Position numbers and translations under genes: made by a program
Source: Candidatus Hydrogenedentota bacterium
GTDB taxonomy: Bacteria; Hydrogenedentota; Hydrogenedentia; Hydrogenedentales; Hydrogenedentaceae
DNA: 64,000 nucleotides
Direction of reading: 5' to 3'
NCBI GenBank assembly: GCA_026415215.1
Contig: JAOAHN010000063.1
Location: forward strand, 778 to 64,777
Shown here: in pieces, positions 3,582-15,307 of the stretch
Layout: each line of letters starts with the position of its first letter
Position numbering within the stretch: position 1 is the first letter of the stretch
The notes under the pieces: model-generated
What the model was told of the DNA's origin: nothing
What the model saw: only the letters and a program-made list of their open reading frames with translations
The model's database searches: none

Positions 3582-6500
3582 ATGAATCCATCTAACCAAA
3601 GGAGCGGAGGTATCGAGAAAAAGTTTTTTGTTGCCATTTTCTGGGTTGGCATTCTCCCAATGACAATTACCCTAATTGTTGCTTATGTTTTCGCAAGAGA
3701 AAGTCAATGGGTAACTACAAAGAGAAATCTGACCACCGCAGTCAGGAGAACAACAGAAGGGCTAAAACTTGCCATAAATACTCGTCTAAATATTACCGAA
3801 AAAATTTCCACTGACCCTTTATTCGAAAAATTTCTAAAGCTCCCATCTAATGAGAGAAATACTTTAATACCCGAAATAACGGAAAAACTGAAAAAAGTTA
3901 AAAATACTTCCGATGGCAAAACCATCTCTTTGGCAATATTAGATACTAACAAAAATATTCTCGTTGCTCTGCCAGATTTTAACATAGGAACTGAAATAAT
4001 TCCCGAATGGCATACAAAAATTGAAAAGCCAAAGATTATATCAATTACCACATTTCCATCATCGAATATATTTACTTTCACCATTGGAGCACCAATAAAA
4101 GATAGAGAAAATTCGAATACAATAGGATTCTTGTTAGAAATACAAAGCATAGATGAACTGATTGAGTTTGCTCTCGGCAGTAGCACATCCGCATCTGAAG
4201 GATTAGGCTCAGAACATATCTATTATTCCTTGAGTTACCTTTCTGAGAAAGGTGGTATCTCAATATTTAAATCTCCCCCAAAGTCGCCTATATCCGCCAA
4301 AGATTATTATTACGAGCCTGTAGACAAAAGACTCCTTCAAAGAATAAAAAGAGCTTTTCCTAAAAATGAGGGTATTCTAACACTATTCAGTTTTATGGTT
4401 AATAATAAACGCCTACCTGTTTTAATAGCTTTCCAAAAAATATTTCCGGAGTATGAACTATATACAATAGTTTTTAGGCCTTTCTATGAAATATTCTGGT
4501 TTATTCATGTAGGTTCTATAGTGGCTCTTATTTTAGCGGGAATGGTGATCCTAATCTTCTCAATAATCGGCTACAGGATTGTAAATAAAAATATTCTTTT
4601 ACCTTTAAGCCTTATAAATGAGGGAGCCCAAATAATAAGACAGGGAGACCTCGATCTAAAACTAAAAATTGCCACAGGTGATGAACTGCAAGAAGTAGCC
4701 GAATCCTTCAACGAAATGGCTAGCACATTGAGGAAGAACATTAGAAAATTAGAAGAATCGGAAGAAAGATACAGAAATCTTGTCAACTCGATGCGAGACG
4801 GAATATTTCAAACGGACGAGAACGGAAAAATAACATTCATCAACCCGGCGGGGGCGAAGATTCTTGGTTATAGTCAACCTGAAACAGCAATAGGAACCTC
4901 CATAAACGAGTTCTTGGTGAGTGACGATGATTTTGAGTATATCAAAAATCAACTTACAACTACTGGTTTTATCCACCAACATCGTATATGGATAAAACCT
5001 TACGAAGGTGAACCAATATGCATAGAAATATCAGCAGATAGAAAAAAAGACCCTCTAAAAAAAGTATACATATTAGAAGGTATCTTCAGAGACATCACTC
5101 AAAATGTTCTCCTTGAGAAAGAAGTCCACAAGAGAGCCGAAAGAATCAGAGCTGTAAACCTCATCGCTCAAAGTATAAATTCAAGCCTCGAAGTCGGCAA
5201 AGTATATGAGACTATATTAGAAGAGATTAAAAGGTTAATCCCATCTGCGGATTTAGTGCTTTTGGCAATAAATAAATACAAAAGTGGTGATACCGACAGT
5301 CCTTCTGTTGAATATGAAATACTTAAGAGCTCTTCAAAAAATGTTGAGGAGATTCCTATTCCAAACAAAAGTATAACAAGGTTATCGACAAAAAAAGATT
5401 TTATTCATTATGACTTTCTACAGTCAGAAGACGAAGAAATAGCGAAAGAATTTCCTCCCAGGATTTCGAGCCTTTTAGGTATCCCCCTCTACACAGAACA
5501 AGAATTCCTTGGATGCCTAATTCTCGCATCTGAAACTCCCAAAGTGTTTTCATCACATGAAATAAATACTGTAGAAGAACTTGCTCCCCATATCGCTGTC
5601 GCTATAAGAAATGCAAAACTACTTGAAAAACTCAGACAAACTCTGGATGAAGTAAACCAAGCAAAAGAACAACTAAATATGGCAAACGAAGAATTGAAAA
5701 CACTTGATGAGATGAAAACAAATTTATTGTCAAATGTATCTCATGAATTAAGAACACCTCTTGTAGCGGTAATGGGATACACAGACATGGTTTTAAAAGG
5801 GAAAGCAGGGCCTATAACAGAAAACCAAAAAGAATTCTTGACGATAAGTATGAGAAATATAGAAAAACTTGTAACTCTCATAGATAACCTACTTGACTTT
5901 TCAAAATTATACAAAGGTAAAGAAGAGCTTATATTTAGCACTTTTGACTTAATAGAATGCGTCGAATATGGAATTCAGAATATTAGGCCCATGGCTGAAC
6001 CAAGAGGAATAACTCTGGAAGTTATATACCCCGAGAAGCCTATACTTGTAGATGGCGACAAAGGAAAAATACTACAAGTCCTAAATAACCTTCTGTCAAA
6101 TGCAGTAAAGTTTAATAAGAATAACGGAGCAATAACTGTCACAATAGAAAAAGTGGAGGATAGAGAGGTAGAAATTTCTGTATCAGACACGGGCATAGGA
6201 ATCCCTGAAGAAGCCCTGGACAAAATCTTTACAAGATTTTACCAAGTAGACTCCTCTTCAACAAGAAAATATGGTGGAGCTGGTATAGGTTTGGCTATAT
6301 CTCAAGACATTATCAGGCTCCATGGAAGTACAATAAGTGTCAAAAGTAAATTGGGCGAAGGTAGCACCTTCTCCTTCAGATTACCATTACACGGTAGATC
6401 ACCTAAAGACCATGCAAAATTTGATAAAGAATTAACTCCAGAGGAAACTCACCTATTAGTTGAGTTAGTTACTCAAGACCGAGGCCTCAATGCTCAAATT

Positions 6501-7217: not shown

Positions 7218-8285
7218 TTAAGATTCTCTATAAAATAACCTATCCTCGGGGGGTATCTCTACCTCAATTCGAGTTCTGGCAGTATCAAGGCGAGGGGGAT
7301 AAAGTACTCTTATTGGCTCCGATCTTTCCTCAGCAATCCACTTGCTAAGCTCTTCCAGACCGTGAGTTGCAGATTCCCGAACTGGTAGCCAAACATGAGC
7401 TATTGCCTCTCGTAAAATCATTCTTCTCTCTTCATATGTCCAAATAACTATTTCGACATCTTTACCAAACTCTTTTCCTGCTAATCTACTCGCTTCCCTC
7501 AAGGCTATAGGGTCTTCATTACCACTACCATCTACAATTGCTGTTATACTTGGATTGGACAACAAGTAACAAGCACTCCTATACAAACTATCAAAATTAA
7601 ATTTAACAGGTTGAACTAAGTCTTTGTTGAATGGTATTCCGAATTCCTCTAAAGCTCTTCTGTAACCGGCAATCCTTTCTGCTCCTGGCTGGTATCCATC
7701 AAAAGCCTGAAGGAAACCAATTACCTTATGCCCCCTTTCTATTAGAAACTTCGTACTAATATATGCAGAATATTCATAATCTACAGTAGCATGGGAAATC
7801 TCAGGGAAAGAACTCAAACGCCCAAAAGCTACATACGGAATCCCAGCATCGTGAATTTTTCTCACAGTGGTATCGTTTAATGCAATAGGACCAACTAAAA
7901 CACAAGCCCTAAATAAATTATCAAAGACTCCTCGTGCGTAATTCCGTATTTCAAATGTTTCATAAGGCATAAAATCAAAACATATATACTCACCTTTCTT
8001 ACCGAAAATCCTATATAACTCATAGAAAAGCCACAAGAAAAATTTACTACTAAAAGGGACTATTTCTATTGGCGCTGGAAAAGTAATTCCTATACAAGCA
8101 GGTGTATTTACTCTCAATGATCGAGCAAAAATATTAGGATGGTATCCTGTTTTTTTAATTATCTCTAAAATTTTTACTCTGGTTTCAAATTTCACCCCAT
8201 CTTTGTTATTAATAACCTTGCTCACCGTTTTCGGTGATACCCCTGCTTCTTTAGCAATATCATATATAGTCACCTTTCTTTTCAT
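7218..8285 (-). CDS. LacI-family transcriptional regulator.
   Basis: N-terminal HTH VTIYDIAKEAGVSPKTVSKVINNK followed by a periplasmic-binding-protein-like sugar-binding fold. Confidence 0.8.
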   Translation of the reverse strand: MKRKVTIYDIAKEAGVSPKTVSKVINNKDGVKFETRVKILEIIKKTGYHPNIFARSLRVNTPACIGITFPAPIEIVPFSSKFFLWLFYELYRIFGKKGEYICFDFMPYETFEIRNYARGVFDNLFRACVLVGPIALNDTTVRKIHDAGIPYVAFGRLSSFPEISHATVDYEYSAYISTKFLIERGHKVIGFLQAFDGYQPGAERIAGYRRALEEFGIPFNKDLVQPVKFNFDSLYRSACYLLSNPSITAIVDGSGNEDPIALREASRLAGKEFGKDVEIVIWTYEERRMILREAIAHVWLPVRESATHGLEELSKWIAEERSEPIRVLYPPRLDTARTRIEVEIPPEDRLFYRES

Positions 8286-8599
8286 AATTTAATACTTCCT
8301 CCTTTTTTCGCAAATACACACTGGAAAAAAATCTACTTCTTCCTCACAATATAAATCGTAATATAAACTCTCTTTTTTACATTTTTGCTCTTCCTATAAT
8401 CTTCCTATATCTTTGTATTATTTTTTTCAAAACATTTGAAAATTTAAAGTGAAATTTTATCATATCCTATTTAACAATTCAATCATCATTCATACACACC
8501 TATATCTATTTCATCTACTATAGTATTTTGGTAATCGGTTACTTATGGCATAAAACAATCAGCCAAATCTAATAAAATAAGCATTTAAGAAGGTCAAAT

Positions 8600-9290
8600 A
8601 TGGGGAAAAAGGGTTAGGCTAATCAAACTTCTTGTTGTCATAGCTTTTAATCAGTATTCTCAAAGCAATTCTACTTCCCGCTCTCGCACATGCTCGTGAT
8701 ATAGATCCTCGTTCAATTCGTCGGAATAATCTTAAACAATGGAGTCTTGTACTCAAAATAATTCTAATTAGACAAAAGGTGAACATTTCTCCAGTGTAAA
8801 TGGGATTACACCCAAGAACAGATGGATAGCCCAGATGGATATTAGATGTTGGTCTAAATGCACTTGGTCTCTATACTGAGTACTTAACTGGCCCGATGAT
8901 TATCTTTTGTCCTTCCGATGCTATTTAGGAACTTCAATTGCTCGTGTTATTTTATTGGAATCTATCCACAAATAAACAAGTATATTTTGGCGAGGCAAAG
9001 AATCAGAAACGGTGTGAGTTCTACAGTGTATCGTCTAAAAGAAGGTATAAAAATATTCTCAATTACAGGCATTAAATTAACAATCCAAATGCTTCTGCCC
9101 AAGCTCAGAGCAGTGTTTGGATAATGTTCTACCAACTTTGTACAAATCCCCACGCATACAGCCACATTCCGGGTGGCTCCAATGTGCTTTACATGAATGG
9201 ACATGTCCAATTCCTGAGATATGGCGAATGTGAACTGCCGCAGTTAACAGACCAATGGCATTATTAGTAGGTATATTGACTTCTAACTAA
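8600..9290 (+). pseudogene. Decayed tandem paralog of the downstream prepilin-type/DUF1559 gene (9523..10506), with an early stop and internal deletions.
   Basis: DNA is collinear with 9508..10506, including the RBS and start context (aagaaggtcaaatATGggg vs aaggaggtcaaaatATGcaa). It shares the N-terminal hydrophobic segment, a middle block (8840-8935 vs 9811-9880) and a near-identical 3' end (9121-9290 vs 10337-10506). A TAG stop falls at codon 6 and roughly 300 nt are missing relative to the intact copy. Confidence 0.7.
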
Positions 9291-9395
9291 ATAATAGACT
9301 CAAGTAAATCTTCAACTTAGAATCATCTTTTAGTGACTATTTTAGTGATTATATTGAATACGAGTTATAACCGCTTATTTTTTTCTTTCAAACGA

Positions 9396-9424
9396 TTTGA
9401 CATCTGAATTTTTATTAATATAAG
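9396..9424 (+). promoter_or_regulatory. Candidate sigma-70 promoter, TTGACA-17-TATAAG, for the DUF1559 gene.
   Basis: TTGACA at 9396-9401 and TATAAG at 9419-9424. AAGGAGG RBS at 9508-9514 before the ATG at 9523. Confidence 0.35.
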
Positions 9425-9522
9425 ATTAGTGCAAAGTTTACTTTTATTCTTTCAGTAATCGATTACTTCTCTGTGTGAAGTAGTCAAGTAAACCTTAAGA
9501 ACAAGTTTAAGGAGGTCAAAAT

Positions 9523-10506
9523 ATGCAAAAGAAGGGTTTTACTTTAATTGAACTACTCGTCGTCATCGCCATTATTGGCATACTTGCTGCAATTCTACTT
9601 CCTGCTCTCGCCCGCGCCCGTGAAGCCGCTCGCCGGTCAAGCTGTCAGAACAATCTAAAACAATGGGGACTCGTTTTCAAGATGTATTCCAACGAAGCTA
9701 AGGGAGAAAGATTTCCCCCGATTCAGGCAGGTGTCTACTTGGATGCAAATCAGCAATACAGAGGTGTGTTAGACGCTGGACCAAATGTATTTGTCCTTTA
9801 TCCAGAATACTTGACTGACCCAATGATAGTCTTCTGTCCATCTGATGCAGAGTTGGGAACTTCTATTGCCCGAGCACACTTCAATGACGATGTGAACCAA
9901 GATTGGTGTCTGGGTTATGCACACAACCATGGTGGAAGATGCGCTCGCGCTATCGACATGAGCTACGGTTACCTCGGATGGGTTTTAGATAAGGGTAATT
10001 GCGACGATCCTATAACCACTGTTTCCTCTTTCCCATTATTAGGAACATTAGCCCAAATGTTAGGCGTACAGCTCGATCCCAACACTCAGATCTCATCCCA
10101 AGTAGGTGCTGCTTTTGAATATCTTGTCCAGCAGGCGCTTCCTTTAATAGGAGTAGATCCTAATACCTTACCCAAAGGGATTTATCCTACCATCGACCAA
10201 GACATCCCTGTTACTGCAGGTCTTGGTAATGGCGGTGGCTCGACAATCTATAGGCTAAGAGAAGGTATTGAGAGATTTTTAATTACCGACATCAACAATC
10301 CAAGTGCCTCTGCCCAAGCTCAAAGCAGTGTTTGGATAATGTTCGACCAACTCTCTACAAATCCCTCTGCATACAACCACATTCCGGGTGGCTCTAATGT
10401 GCTTTACATGGATGGACATGTGCAATTCCTGAGATACGGCGAATGTGAACCTGCCCCAGTTAACAAACCAATGGCGGTATTGGTTGGAATCCTAACTTCG
10501 AGCTAA
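9523..10506 (+). CDS. Prepilin-type N-terminal cleavage/methylation domain protein with a C-terminal DUF1559 (H-X9-DG) domain, a pseudopilin-like secreted protein.
   Basis: [44 protein letters not shown] is the classic type IV pilin-like leader and methylation site. The C-terminal [15 protein letters not shown] fits the H-X9-DG motif. This family is massively expanded in Planctomycetes and other PVC lineages (established knowledge). Confidence 0.8.
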
Positions 10507-10542
10507 TCTACGGTACTCTCTCATAATACTATAAGTAGTTTA

Positions 10543-10590
10543 GGGTCCACACTCCGGGCGGTCGTATCGAACGATACGGCCGCTTAAACT
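10543..10590. terminator. Probable bidirectional rho-independent terminator between convergent genes.
   Basis: Imperfect GC-rich hairpin CGGGCGGTCGTATCG-AAC-GATACGGCCGC followed by TTAAACTTTTATT. Confidence 0.45.
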
Positions 10591-10649
10591 TTTATTCTGA
10601 CGGAGGGAAAAAAATACACTCCCCGAACCAATTATAAAAGCCGAGGAAA

Positions 10650-11897
10650 CTACCCCTCTATAATTTTTGGCGGTTCGGAAGCATAATCAACCTGATAAAT
10701 CTTCCCCCCACTTGCGATAGATTTCCTTGCACACTCATTTATTAATTCGTTGTAATATGAATTGGTAGGAGTAGCAATTATTCCATTTCTATCAATCTCA
10801 TTAAGTAGGTTGAGTTGTGCTTCTAACTCTGAACAATTTTCTAATCTAAGTACTACATTTATCAATTCTTCTATTGAAGTATAACCATACCCAACGGGTT
10901 TCAAACCCTCTCCATTCCACGGAACCATCCTGAAATAATCCGTATTGACTAAATAGAATTTCTTTTTTGGTTCCCCCAAGTCTTCTCTTAAAGCATAGGT
11001 AACACCTCTGAATTGGTCGTCGTGTCTCAGTGTAGCAGTGCAATCTTTCCCCTCGAAAAACATTTCAAGTCCCTGTTGATTACTTCCACCTCCGATATCT
11101 GGATAGCCTAATCCATTTATTAAAGACAAAATACCACCATTTTCATAAACAACTCTGCCTTGGCTCCACATATACCCCTCTTTACCATTCGGAAAATTCT
11201 TTTTTATCCCAACCACTGAAACAGAGACTGGTTTTAACCCTGTAATAAAAGTTACGAGGTCCACATAATGACATCCCACATATGTAAATGGGTCTGAAAT
11301 ATCACAAGTAAACCAATTCTGAAAGTTGCTGTGTCGATAATAATATGGCTCAATCATTTTTGCTTCACCAATAACAAACTCCCCAAATAGCCCTGCTTTA
11401 TAATTCCTTCTTGCAAGCAGGGCTCTAATATCAAATCTCTTGTGATATTCTACCCCCACAAATAACCCTTTAGATTTTGCAATTTTCTCTATTTCTGCCA
11501 ACTGAGCGTAAGACTGAACTAAAGGTTTCACACAGATAACATGTTGGTTATTACTTAGTGCCTCCATTATCGCAGGATAATGTAAATTATCAGGCAAAGC
11601 AATGAAAATACACTGCCGAGGAGATAACTTTTTAATAACTTCTTTATAGAGTTCAGGATAATACTCATTTTCAGGAGTTTTTAAGGGAGGAAAAGCCTCA
11701 AAACTTTGGTTTGGGAACGCTTCTTTGATAAATGGACTTTCAGCAAGATTTTTAAGAGGGGTAGAATGACGGGCACAAATTAAAATTCTCCCCACTTGCC
11801 CTAACCTCTGTAAATGGTATAAGCTCGGGAGAATTTGGTCATGAACTATCATTCCCCCTCCTATAATTAGAACATCTACTTTTTTCACGCCAACCAT
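10650..11897 (-). CDS. Gfo/Idh/MocA-like NAD(P)-dependent oxidoreductase (divergent member).
   Basis: N-terminal Rossmann VDVLIIGGGMIVHDQILP, a VKPL segment at the position of the family EKP motif, and about 415 aa length. Confidence 0.45.
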   Translation of the reverse strand: MVGVKKVDVLIIGGGMIVHDQILPSLYHLQRLGQVGRILICARHSTPLKNLAESPFIKEAFPNQSFEAFPPLKTPENEYYPELYKEVIKKLSPRQCIFIALPDNLHYPAIMEALSNNQHVICVKPLVQSYAQLAEIEKIAKSKGLFVGVEYHKRFDIRALLARRNYKAGLFGEFVIGEAKMIEPYYYRHSNFQNWFTCDISDPFTYVGCHYVDLVTFITGLKPVSVSVVGIKKNFPNGKEGYMWSQGRVVYENGGILSLINGLGYPDIGGGSNQQGLEMFFEGKDCTATLRHDDQFRGVTYALREDLGEPKKKFYLVNTDYFRMVPWNGEGLKPVGYGYTSIEELINVVLRLENCSELEAQLNLLNEIDRNGIIATPTNSYYNELINECARKSIASGGKIYQVDYASEPPKIIEG

Positions 11898-11921
11898 TTT
11901 CTTTTATTCCCTAATAACTAT

Positions 11922-12917
11922 TTATTTTTCGTATACCACATCAATCTTTTCTTTAAGTTTTTCTATACGCTGATTCAAAATCTTCTTTAATTCTATCTCT
12001 GTTAACTGTTTCTCTAAACCCAACCTCATTTTTTCGTAGGGAATAGTAGTTCCTTTTTGATATTTTCCTAATACTTTTATGATATTCCAACCGTTTCTCG
12101 ACCTAAAAGGAGGAGAAACACTGCCCACAGGCAAAAGAACGAGATAATGTTTTACTTCAGGCAATACCTCTCTTAATGTGACCTCATAGTATGAAAATCC
12201 CTGCTTGGTAGAGAAACTATCTTTTGAATATTTTCTTGCAGCAGAGAAAAAATCCTCTCCTTCTTGGAGTTTTAAATAAATGCTCTTTATCTGGTTTTCA
12301 ACTTCAGGCGAATTCGTAAAATCTGGTAGAAAAATATTAGCAAAGTCATATGTATCAGCAGTCCTTCGTATAATCCCCTTGTTCGAAAGCTGTAAATAGG
12401 TTTCTTTTATCTTTTCCTCCGGGATTGATATATCTCTTTTAACCTTTTCAATGTACTTATCAATCATAATCTTCCGCTTGATTTGCTCTTTGATGTAATC
12501 CTCATCTACGCCATTTTCCTTTAGCCACCTTTTATACACCTCTTGTCCTCCTAAACTTTCTATACCACTTTGAAGAATTTCATCCACCTCCTTTTCTTCG
12601 TAAGTAGTGTTATCTTCGGTAGCAAGTATGAAGACCATTTGTTGAAATACAATTTCCTCAAGCACTTTAGATTTAAAAGTCTCTATAGCTTTAGGAAAAA
12701 GAGCAGGAGGATACTCCAATAATTCAAACTCTCTATACTTTAAATAAGCATTAAAGTCCCCCACTGTTATATTGTAAGAGCCAATCCTTACTAATATCTT
12801 ATTCTCTGGAAGAGACGAAAAACCATCGCCTCTGCTCCCCCCTGTAGCATAAAAAGGGCATGTAACAATGATAATCAAAGTGATAATTACTAATCTCTTC
12901 AGATAAATATGAACCAT
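11922..12917 (-). CDS. Secreted SurA/PrsA-like peptidyl-prolyl isomerase (parvulin domain).
   Basis: Signal peptide. The C-terminal parvulin-like segment DSFSTKQGFSYYEVTLREVLPEV…GSVSPPFRSRNGWNIIKV matches the spacing of the GG.LGwf…G.vS.pv.t.fG.H.IkV pattern. Confidence 0.5.
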   Translation of the reverse strand: MVHIYLKRLVIITLIIIVTCPFYATGGSRGDGFSSLPENKILVRIGSYNITVGDFNAYLKYREFELLEYPPALFPKAIETFKSKVLEEIVFQQMVFILATEDNTTYEEKEVDEILQSGIESLGGQEVYKRWLKENGVDEDYIKEQIKRKIMIDKYIEKVKRDISIPEEKIKETYLQLSNKGIIRRTADTYDFANIFLPDFTNSPEVENQIKSIYLKLQEGEDFFSAARKYSKDSFSTKQGFSYYEVTLREVLPEVKHYLVLLPVGSVSPPFRSRNGWNIIKVLGKYQKGTTIPYEKMRLGLEKQLTEIELKKILNQRIEKLKEKIDVVYEK

Positions 12918-12950
12918 TTTTTGAGAATCTGTCCCGAGGGTTCTAAGAAA

Positions 12951-14000
12951 CTATTGAATCTTTATAGGTTTCCCAAGGCGAGCAGATTTATAGATTTGTT
13001 CTATCAAAGCAACCGCATGCCTTGCTTCTCTTCCATCAACTGCGGGCTTTCTCCCTTTTAAAATTGCCTGAGCAAAATCTTCAATTTGCCTCCTATGTCC
13101 CTCAATTTTTAATGCTGCGAGCGGGTCACTTGCTCCCGAGCCTAATTCTGATTCTCTTTTCATTTCCTTTTCTACTTTCACATCAATTGGCTTCCTTTTA
13201 GTGAATTTCCAGAAAACTATCTTACCATCTTCAAGCACGGCACTCCCCTCCGATCCGTGTACTTCAACCCTTGCAGGATGACCAGGCCAAGTGGCGGTGC
13301 TACCTTCTATTACACCATACGCACCATTTTCAAATTCCAACACAGCGGTAGCAAGGTCTTCCACCTCAAGCCCTTCATGAGCAATACATTGAGTTTGTGC
13401 AAAGACTCTCTTCACTCGTCCCATAAACCAAAGAAGTAAATCTATTTGGTGTATCCCTTGATTCATCAGGGCGCCACCACCATCAAGTTTCCAAGTCCCT
13501 CGCCACGAAGCACTCTTATAATATTCCTGAGAACGATACCACTTTATATATGCATCTCCAAGCACTAATTTCCCGAACCTATTTTGTTCTATGGCTTGCT
13601 TAATTAACTTAGACCCATCTGCAAATCTACTTTGAAAGATACAACCTAATAAAACCCCGGCTTTCTCAGTAGCTCTAATTATTCTATCTATCCGGGATGA
13701 GGTAACTTCTAACGGTTTCTCAGAGAGAATATGCTTGCCCGCTTGAGCACATTCCTCTGCTATTTCAGCCCTTAACCCACTAGGAACACACAAACACACA
13801 GCTTGCACATCTTTTCGCTTAACCATCTCCCTATAATCAGTATATGCATCTACATTATATTTATCTGCGAGCTTCTTTGCATTTGCCTCAACTACATCAG
13901 AAACAGCTACCAACATTGCGCACGATACCGCTTGAATCGCCGCCGCATGAACAGGTCCTATATTCCCACACCCTATTATTCCAAAGCCAACTTTTTTCAT
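12951..14000 (-). CDS. Gfo/Idh/MocA family oxidoreductase.
   Basis: GFGIIGCGNIGPVHAAAI Rossmann start, EKP motif (ILSEKPLE) and about 349 aa. Confidence 0.8.
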   Translation of the reverse strand: MKKVGFGIIGCGNIGPVHAAAIQAVSCAMLVAVSDVVEANAKKLADKYNVDAYTDYREMVKRKDVQAVCLCVPSGLRAEIAEECAQAGKHILSEKPLEVTSSRIDRIIRATEKAGVLLGCIFQSRFADGSKLIKQAIEQNRFGKLVLGDAYIKWYRSQEYYKSASWRGTWKLDGGGALMNQGIHQIDLLLWFMGRVKRVFAQTQCIAHEGLEVEDLATAVLEFENGAYGVIEGSTATWPGHPARVEVHGSEGSAVLEDGKIVFWKFTKRKPIDVKVEKEMKRESELGSGASDPLAALKIEGHRRQIEDFAQAILKGRKPAVDGREARHAVALIEQIYKSARLGKPIKIQ

Positions 14001-14134
14001 AAATTTATGCCTCCTGCACGCTATTAATTATAGTTCTTCCATCATTGCCTAAATCCAGAATATTCTTGTGATATAATAACACATTCCCGAATAATGTCAC
14101 TATTCAATGGGATATACCTCCTTAGGAAACCTCA

Positions 14135-15307
14135 ATGAAAACTGCAGTACAATTTGGGGCAGGAAATATAGGACGGGGCTTCTTAGGCCAATTATACTTT
14201 GAAAGCGGATATTACACAATTTTTATAGATGCATTGCCAGAATTAGTCAATCTTCTAAATGAAAGAAAGTGTTATCCTATAAAAATCGTAGGAAATAATA
14301 GAGAAAATACCGTCAGAATAAAGAACTTCGAGGCTTGTCATATTTCTGATAAAGGAAAAATCATCAACGCTATAAGGAACGCAGATATAGTATCCACTGC
14401 AGTCGGACAAAAAGGCATACCTGAAGTAATCAAGATACTATCAGAAGGCGTTGTTGCTCGACTTTTAGAAGAGAATATGCCCCCTCTAAATGTAATAATC
14501 TGTGAAAACTTGCCAGAACCTCAAAAGACATTTTATGAATTAATTATCAAACAGATTCCGGACCATCTCAAGGAGAAATTTGACGAAAACATAGGGTTAG
14601 TAGAAGCTTCCATAGGAAGAATGGTCCCAGTAGTTACAGAGAAAGAAAAATTAGAGGATCCATTACTCATTAAAGTAGAGGAGTATTCTGAACTACCAGT
14701 GGATAGAGACAGCTTTAAAGGTAAAATCCCTCATATCAAAAACATGAAACTTTGTTCTCCTTTTTATGCCTATGTTCACAGGAAATTGTATTTACATAAC
14801 TTAACTCATGCGACAACTGCTTATCTGGGAGCTCTAAAAAAATACAAATATATATGGGAAGCTATTGAAGATAAAGATATTAGAAACATTGTTTATGAAG
14901 CAGGAAGTGAATCTACTCAAGCGATTCATAAATTAGATAAACTTCCTATGGACGAACTTAAAAATCATTTAGAGGATTTATTAGTAAGGTACGCTAACAA
15001 AAATCTTGGCGACCAGATTGCAAGAGTCAGCAAAGACCCCATAAGAAAACTTTCTCCAGGAGAAAGATTTATTGGTGCAGCTAACTACTGTATAAAAGCA
15101 GGAATAATACCTGAGCACATCTCCATAGGAATTGCAAGTGCTCTATTTTTCGATGGTGAGGATGATGAAAGCTTAACTCTCAGAGAAATTAGAGAAAAAA
15201 GGGGAGTAGACTACATATTAAAAGAAATATGTAAAATCAGTAACGATTCTCTCCTGTTTAATTTGATAAAAAAAGCCATTGATAAAGTAAAATCTTTTGC
15301 AAAATAA
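14135..15307 (+). CDS. mtlD: Mannitol dehydrogenase family protein, mannitol-1-phosphate 5-dehydrogenase-like.
   Basis: The N-terminus [25 protein letters not shown] closely parallels MtlD [24 protein letters not shown]. Length 390 aa. Confidence 0.6.
   Translation: [390 protein letters not shown]

Follow-up and report, generated by a model that had tools for sequence, protein, structure and literature searches.

The stretch of DNA analysed here, referred to below as the window, is 64 kb of a contig (JAOAHN010000063.1) from a metagenome-assembled genome (MAG) of Candidatus Hydrogenedentota. It contains an intact gene of the DUF1559 family of prepilin-like proteins and, upstream of it, the divergently oriented gene of a LacI-family regulator. 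Between the two lies a second, degenerate DUF1559 sequence (8600..9290), hereafter the relic, which is the subject of this report. An earlier note on the same DNA had described this sequence as a collinear tandem duplicate of the intact gene, retaining its ribosome-binding site (RBS) and start codon, and had read it as a case of duplication followed by decay.

The intact neighbour belongs on all signatures to the DUF1559, prepilin-type H-X9-DG proteins. Its product matches the Pfam families N_methyl (PF07963, 35.7 bits; cut-off 21.2) and SBP_bac_10/DUF1559 (PF07596, 41.2 bits; cut-off 23.3), as well as the NCBIfam models TIGR02532 (36.2 bits; cut-off 16.3) and TIGR04294 for the H-X9-DG motif (26.3 bits; cut-off 19). 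The residues GFTLIELL are invariant across 56 homologues, and an AlphaFold model of the protein (pLDDT, the predicted local distance difference test, 87) has a pilin-like N-terminal helix. The protein deposited for this gene (P0001, 304 aa) begins at an ATT, codon 24, and is without the prepilin signal and methylation motif. The ATG at 9523, behind AAGGAGG, gives the full 327 aa, and all homologues align with this product over its whole length; the start of the deposited record is apparently wrong.

Homology, extent and lesions of the relic

The region around the relic (8400..9330) was compared by blastn with that of the intact gene (9331..10560). One block of 82% identity spans the RBS and ATG (8584-8615 against 9506-9538), and is followed by blocks of 76% (8665-8742 against 9589-9666) and 75% (8842-8941 against 9769-9869), and then by a block of 216 nt that is 87.0% identical (9076-9290 against 10291-10506; E=8e-68). 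A weaker fifth block, of 84%, falls in the promoter region (8416-8439 against 9376-9400). A global alignment of the two regions returned the blocks in identical order, and the relic is collinear with 9523..10506 from the promoter-like site and operator, via the RBS and ATG, to the stop codon. Both comparisons bear out the retention of RBS and start codon, and the pairwise alignment that had been proposed as a check gave collinear blocks of which the best, as just described, is 87% identical.

The relic opens with an ATG at 8600-8602, preceded by a Shine-Dalgarno-like sequence where the intact gene has AAGGAGG (9509-9515). It reads ATG GGG AAA AAG GGT TAG, such that the stop reported at codon 6 is real (TAG, 8615-8617), and it ends with a TAA (9288-9290) that aligns with the neighbour's stop codon. 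With a length of 691 nt as compared with 984 nt for the intact gene it is 293 nt shorter, in agreement with the roughly 300 nt said to be missing, and an internal deletion of ~290-330 nt is apparent. The conserved tail that the earlier note had described is also present, but it is 215 nt long and not ~170 nt.

The coding potential of the relic is disrupted throughout. In tblastn comparisons the intact protein matched it in three frames with internal stops (E=4e-33 and 6e-20), and the match jumps from residue 109 to residue 219, residues ~110-218 being absent. Multiple alignment placed this deletion (287 consensus positions) at ~8953, and revealed at least seven frameshifting indels (-2 at ~8613, +1 at ~8649, -1 at ~8760, -2 at ~8785, -1 at ~8922, +5 at ~9071 and -1 at ~9234) plus several in-register stops. 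In the 3' block, Y, S and N stand in place of the family-invariant residues D275, N285 and D297, and the H-X9-DG motif has NG instead of DG. An uninterrupted domain-encoding frame was not found in the relic. These lesions in a clearly homologous sequence, together with the relaxed constraint and the intact positional counterpart in related genomes described below, are the hallmarks of a pseudogene; judged from its sequence, 8600..9290 is non-functional.

The small open reading frames (ORFs) within this region can be accounted for in the same way. The ORF 8918..9124 (+) is a piece of the homologous frame that runs into an out-of-frame stretch, while the antisense ORF 8962..9210 (-) has an equivalent in the intact gene (10279..10425, -) with a similar peptide. 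A Pfam search with the four small ORFs of the relic and the antisense ORF of the intact gene gave no significant match (best E=0.17), and an Rfam search of 8200..10700 gave no RNA family at E<=1. We therefore regard the small ORFs as predicted by-products of the relic, as the earlier note had proposed for 8918..9124 and 8962..9210. For annotation, 8600..9290 should be marked as a pseudogene, and 8918..9124, 8962..9210 and 9124..9267 should not be called as genes.

Table 1. Coordinates of the relic, its intact neighbour and associated features in the window (MFE, minimum free energy)
Feature	Position	Strand	Evidence or remark
Relic of upstream tandem DUF1559/prepilin-like paralogue, pseudogene	8600..9290	+	Collinear blastn and tblastn matches to 9523..10506
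Old, heavily decayed part of relic	8600..9075	+	Corresponds to codons 1-~115 and ~219-256 of intact gene; equidistant from all homologues
Younger 3' block of relic, putative gene-conversion tract	9076..9290	+	Matches 10291..10506; one -1 frameshift at ~9234
Internal deletion junction	8942..8956	+	Variable middle lost; gap at alignment columns 359-691
Shine-Dalgarno-like AAGAAGG of relic	8587..8593	+	Sequence and alignment
Intact DUF1559 gene, 327 aa	9523..10506	+	Putative source of, or partner in, the conversion tract
LacI-family regulator gene, divergent; presumed binder of both palindromes	7218..8285	-	Pfam LacI helix-turn-helix, 63.7 bits
Palindrome GTAATCGGTTAC, candidate LacI operator	8531..8542		58 nt before relic ATG; 19.6 of maximum 20.6 bits
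Perfect palindrome GTAATCGATTAC, candidate LacI-type operator of intact gene	9455..9466		57 nt before ATG; 20.6 bits, the maximum
Promoter-like site of relic, TTGAAA-16-TATCAT	8436..8463	+	Consensus scan; adjoins upstream homology block
Promoter-like site of intact gene, TTGACA-18-TAAGAT	9397..9426	+	Consensus scan; -35 hexamer conserved in upstream-region alignment
Spacer after relic	9291..9380	+	MFE -8.9 kcal/mol, z=+0.5; T-run remains
Intrinsic terminator of intact gene	10556..10585	+	13-bp stem, then T-run; MFE -27.5 kcal/mol, z=-3.6

Mosaic age of the relic

The resemblance of the relic to its neighbour is very uneven. The 5' and middle segments are 55-67% identical to the neighbour and to other homologues alike. 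In contrast, over the last ~217 aligned nt identity rises to 87% with the neighbour but is only 64-75% with the other homologues. Neighbour-joining trees on raw p-distances, which are not model-based, gave a corresponding picture: relic and neighbour were monophyletic in 200 of 200 bootstraps for the tail but in 49 of 200 for the 5' block, which grouped with the copies from two related loci, L005 and L090 (see below), in 100 of 200. Informative sites place the breakpoint between 9058 and 9088. The relic thus exhibits the features of gene conversion, namely a discrete segment of differing phylogeny and divergence (87% identity as against ~62%) delimited by a breakpoint. The greater closeness to the neighbour over the whole length that marks a recent tandem duplicate was not found; it holds for the last 215 nt only.

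The two parts also differ in their pattern of substitution. In the 5' block (columns 1-360) the relic and its neighbour differ at 30, 19 and 61% of first, second and third codon positions, respectively, as compared with 11-22, 5-8 and 52-60% when the intact neighbour is compared over the same columns with homologues in other genomes. Since the third-position difference is at the between-genome level, synonymous sites in this block are saturated. The excess of ~12-14% at second positions reads as the signature of later neutral decay. In the 3' block (last 223 columns) the corresponding differences are 8, 8 and 21%, and the third-position value compares with 38-57% between genomes. From the decay rate we estimate that a duplication no older than the decay would give a third-position difference of ~30-40% in the 5' block; the 71 differences observed at 117 third positions reject this (binomial p<=5e-6).

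Constraint has been relaxed along the relic, again to differing extents. Of the columns without variation among the 11 intact genes in the alignment, 16-24% are changed in the old part of the relic. When family-invariant columns were scored on either side of the tail boundary, 43 of 217 were changed upstream (20%) versus 7 of 97 in the tail (7%; Fisher p=0.004). The relic-specific changes are AT-biased (29 G/C>A/T versus 12 A/T>G/C), and the GC content of the relic is 38.4% versus 45.8% for the intact gene. The tail itself, to judge from its -1 frameshift at ~9234 and its replaced invariant residues, is unconstrained as well.

Related loci and the history of the relic

The gene order histidine kinase, LacI-family regulator (-), DUF1559 (+), GFO/IDH/MocA (-), SurA-like peptidyl-prolyl isomerase (-), GFO/IDH/MocA (-) and mannitol dehydrogenase (+) is conserved in many MAGs. 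In the window, the two GFO/IDH/MocA genes, the SurA-like isomerase gene and the mannitol dehydrogenase-family gene occupy 10650-15307, and their arrangement is kept in all syntenic loci. The more distant genomes, whose histidine kinases and LacI proteins share ~55-63% identity with those of the window, have a single DUF1559 gene at this locus (examples are L001-L004, L008, L009 from Ca. Hydrogenedens terephthalaticus, L012, L091 and L092). The closest genomes found by flanking proteins (73-78% identity), L005/L006/L007 and L090, each have two intact tandem copies between the LacI-family and GFO/IDH/MocA genes. L005 and L090, at 79-85% identity, are slightly nearer to each other than either is to the window genome. 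The upstream copies of the two group as a clade (191-196 of 200 bootstraps), and 1-2% of second and 44-47% of third positions differ between them, indicating that the upstream paralogue is an old gene under purifying selection.

Exchange between tandem copies is also suggested in these relatives. Identity between the two copies of L005 (3631-4614 and 4873-5850) is 94% in the first 150 alignment columns but 70-82% in the remainder, which suggests, at the level of sequence comparison, that the 5' end underwent a gene conversion of its own in that lineage; gene conversion between tandem copies would thus not be unique to the window genome. A distant genome, L088, carries its own DUF1559 pair. Two or three DUF1559 genes are adjacent in L015 (2490-6473), L018 (960-4483) and L017 (4001-6362), and tandem arrays of this family seem to be common in Hydrogenedentota.

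Taken together, we consider it likely that the relic is an old tandem paralogue that was lost in this lineage, and that gene conversion later renewed its 3' end with sequence of the neighbour. That the pair is old, and that one member was lost here, follows from the equidistance of the 5' block, the 61% difference at third positions and the intact pairs of the relatives. The starting point would be an old tandem pair of LacI-associated DUF1559 genes, probably shared with L005/L090, both copies of which would have remained functional over a long period. The upstream copy would then have lost constraint in the window lineage, with AT-biased point decay, frameshifts and stops, and would have lost its variable middle third by deletion and its terminator by erosion. 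This last step is suggested by folding, since hairpins follow the upstream copies of L005 and L090 but none follows the relic. After the onset of decay, non-reciprocal recombination would have copied ~215 nt from the 3' end of the live gene onto the relic, and the tract would subsequently have gained a frameshift and the replacements of invariant residues.

Not all parts of this history are equally firm. Homology, disabling lesions, relaxed constraint, a mosaic of ages and the intact pairs of the relatives are seen directly in the comparisons. Gene conversion accounts for the high identity of the tail better than uneven decay does. From its position (synteny) alone, we infer that the relic is orthologous to the upstream copy of the relatives. 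Conversion presumably ran from the intact gene to the relic, given that decay has gone less far in the tract than elsewhere in the relic and that none of the invariant residues is altered in the intact gene. The onset of decay presumably preceded the conversion.

Several points weigh against this history. The 5' part of the relic is too decayed to be placed with assurance, grouping with the L005/L090 copies in just half of the replicates (100/200). In a full-length neighbour-joining tree of the intact genes, the live copy of the window branches off before all four L005/L090 copies. This topology is also compatible with a duplication in the L005/L090 ancestor, after its separation from the window lineage, and a separate old duplication in the latter; like the segment trees, this one was derived by neighbour-joining from raw p-distances. 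Conservation in the family is highest at the 3' end, and identity in this part is raised accordingly, but not to 87%, nor at synonymous sites. Finally, no other assembly of this organism turned up in the genome and metagenome collections searched.

An independent origin of the tandem pair here, by an old event separate from that in L005/L090 and followed by decay and tail conversion, is accordingly a reading to be taken seriously, if a rather unlikely one. It would accommodate the greater nearness of L005 and L090 to each other than to the window genome and the basal position of the window's intact gene, and the pair in the distant L088 shows that duplication recurs at the locus. However, the locus agrees with L005/L090 in position, orientation, operator spacing and gene order, the 5' block of the relic groups more often with their copies than with its neighbour (100/200 versus 49/200), and one shared event plus conversion is more parsimonious. 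A recent tandem duplication of the whole unit in this lineage, with rapid and uneven decay that eroded the 5' and middle parts faster than the tail, we regard as improbable. In its favour are the collinearity from promoter to stop, including RBS, ATG and operator, and the 87% identity of the tail to the neighbour. Neutral decay should be uniform, though, and the proportion of invariant columns changed is 20% upstream of the tail and 7% within it (p=0.004). Moreover, third positions of the 5' block have reached saturation (61%) but second positions differ by only 19%, so that much of the 5' divergence must have arisen under purifying selection, while both copies were functional. The 5' block is also no nearer to the neighbour than to homologues in other genomes, and the pair is intact in both closest relatives. 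Of the original description as duplication followed by decay, the decayed tandem paralogue therefore stands, but the duplicate is not a fresh one: its 5' two-thirds are equidistant, third positions differ by 61%, and the pairs of the relatives are intact.

Two further explanations deny the relic the status of a simple pseudogene. In Neisseria, the expressed pilin gene pilE is accompanied by silent partial copies, pilS, which donate sequence to it and thereby bring about antigenic variation; the pilS cassettes are without a promoter and the constant N-terminus, and carry the variable region. The present arrangement is similar in that a pilin-like expressed gene lies beside a partial copy and there is evidence of recombination between the two. 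It is nevertheless highly improbable that the relic is such a donor cassette, or that it encodes small proteins from 8918..9124, 9124..9267 and 8962..9210. The variable middle third, which a donor would need, is deleted, while the constant N-terminus, promoter-like site and RBS are kept; the block shared with the intact gene is the most conserved part of the family; and the aberrant residues (D275Y, N285S and D297N) sit in the relic, pointing to transfer from gene to relic. Membership of a pilS-like class was rejected, the variable middle being deleted and the ATG and N-terminal region retained. As for small proteins, Pfam gave no match, and the ORFs are a frame fragment and an antisense ORF, the latter also present in the intact gene. 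Least likely of all is an assembly artefact, either a chimeric join or a collapse of strain variants or paralogues. The source is indeed a MAG contig for which no second assembly of the same organism was found, but such an error does not give AT-biased decay, seven small indels and a codon-position-specific loss of constraint. Relic and gene have no exact word longer than 21 nt in common, and the final k-mers of metagenome assemblers are usually longer than this. The flanks, in addition, are syntenic with the relatives on both sides.

The relic can be compared with better known cases of both decay and conversion. It resembles bacterial birth-and-death pseudogenes in its homology to a neighbour, its frameshifts and stops, internal deletion and AT drift, and in having an intact counterpart in relatives; we see no substantive difference, other than that its phylum has been little studied and its family has no known function. 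Between duplicated bacterial genes, such as tufA/tufB and the rRNA operons, gene conversion (concerted evolution) is known. As in those systems, there is a discrete tract of high identity, the phylogenies of the segments are incongruent and a breakpoint can be defined, and the L005 pair has a similar tract at its 5' end. Unlike in those systems, the recipient appears to have been a pseudogene that was already decaying, there is no evident functional consequence, and the direction is an inferred one. Overall, the relic would represent ordinary turnover of a gene family, in which an old paralogue was lost in one lineage and acquired a gene-conversion patch.

DUF1559 (PF07596, SBP_bac_10) H-X9-DG proteins form the largest paralogue group in Planctomycetes, with 68 in Planctopirus limnophila, and an InterPro remark quoted in the same paper describes DUF1559 as 'apparently restricted to Planctomycetes' (PMC10632474). 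This remark does not hold for the Hydrogenedentota locus described here. As in the planctomycete proteins, all three signatures are present in the intact neighbour, and the relic is homologous in its N- and C-terminal parts. The host is different: NCBI places Candidatus Hydrogenedentota in the FCB (Fibrobacteres-Chlorobi-Bacteroidetes) group, and not in the PVC (Planctomycetes-Verrucomicrobia-Chlamydiae) group, and thus the earlier note's PVC framing was not borne out, although the family is expanded in this phylum too. A scan of species-representative genomes returned 545 related stretches, and most of the 80 loci listed come from Hydrogenedentota MAGs; DUF1559 is clearly strongly expanded in Hydrogenedentota. 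A deposited protein identical to that of the window comes from a Candidatus Hydrogenedentes MAG. The listed homologues are 59-85% identical, and all those with a source name are assigned to Hydrogenedentes or Hydrogenedens. No relative above 85% protein identity was found in scans of genome and metagenome collections, neither the exact protein nor P0001 occurs in the contig index, and a 23-mer spanning the deletion junction was absent from the JGI metagenomes. Within the 64-kb window, tblastn with the intact protein found no further DUF1559 copy. The locus thus documents birth-and-death turnover and gene conversion of DUF1559 genes outside Planctomycetes, in Hydrogenedentota.

Candidate operators and other control signals

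A palindromic motif, (A)GTAAnCGnTTAC(T) with a central CG, has only two strong sites in the 64-kb window, one ahead of the relic (8531-8542) and one ahead of the intact gene (9455-9466). In the relatives, every DUF1559 gene at the locus is preceded by this motif at a distance of 56-65 nt. Most single-copy genomes have a second copy of the motif adjoining the start of the divergent LacI-family gene. Sites of the motif lie at 4806 and 4933 in L001, 3564 and 4797 in L005, 3648 and 4930 in L090, 3360 and 3635 in L088, and 3806 and 3931 in L009. This LacI-adjacent copy is absent or degenerate in the window (8286-8330), L005 and L090, which leaves the operator of the relic as the only strong site in the intergenic region between the LacI-family gene and the relic.

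The LacI-family gene holds the same position in all syntenic loci. In addition to its DNA-binding domain, the protein of the window matches Peripla_BP_1 above the cut-off, and Peripla_BP_3 at 26.2 bits, just below the cut-off of 26.5. With a core palindrome of 12-14 bp the motif is shorter than the usual 16-22 bp, and it still has the character of a LacI-family operator. It is therefore probably the operator of the adjacent LacI-family regulator, which probably represses the DUF1559 genes at this locus, and the gene context of the LacI-controlled locus suggests a sugar or polyol theme. If this reading is true, the DUF1559 genes would be sugar- or effector-responsive, which might offer a handle on a family of unknown function. 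In this respect a by-product of the analysis is more useful than the relic itself: a conserved LacI-type operator always precedes the DUF1559 genes at this locus, beside a LacI regulator and sugar/polyol dehydrogenase genes, and operator and context together constitute a testable regulatory handle on a large family.

Further control signals were sought around both copies. The upstream homology block (8416-8439 against 9376-9400) reaches as far as the TTGACA in the intact gene's promoter-like site. Taken alone, the promoter scan carries no statistical weight, with 8 promoter-like sites in the region versus 7.6 expected from shuffles. Downstream, the upstream copies of L005 (4612-4700) and L090 (4698-4800) are followed by hairpins of 14 and 11 bp, respectively (z ~-3.2 and -3.3), and a scan of the spacer after the relic (9291..9380) found no terminator-like site. 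Since this spacer is without a hairpin, a transcript arising ahead of the relic would run on into the intact gene.

This arrangement raises the question of whether the 5' control region of the relic is still used, either as an operator for autoregulation of the LacI-family gene or as a second promoter reading into the intact gene. The operator of the relic is a perfect consensus match at the canonical spacing. However, we estimate a probability of ~7-19% that a 12-nt site would remain unchanged under 13-20% neutral decay, and since survival by chance is of this order, retention of the operator is not evidence of function. Continued use is, in our judgement, doubtful. Were it nonetheless to occur, a LacI-controlled promoter would read through ~900 nt of dead gene into the DUF1559 gene, and the pseudogene would be a co-opted regulatory leader or decoy.

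One start assignment among the relatives also bears on the operator motif. The upstream DUF1559 gene of L090 is called at 3642-4700 (352 aa), and this called start overlaps the operator palindrome at 3648. The conserved start lies at 3717, and the called start is probably 25 codons too far upstream.

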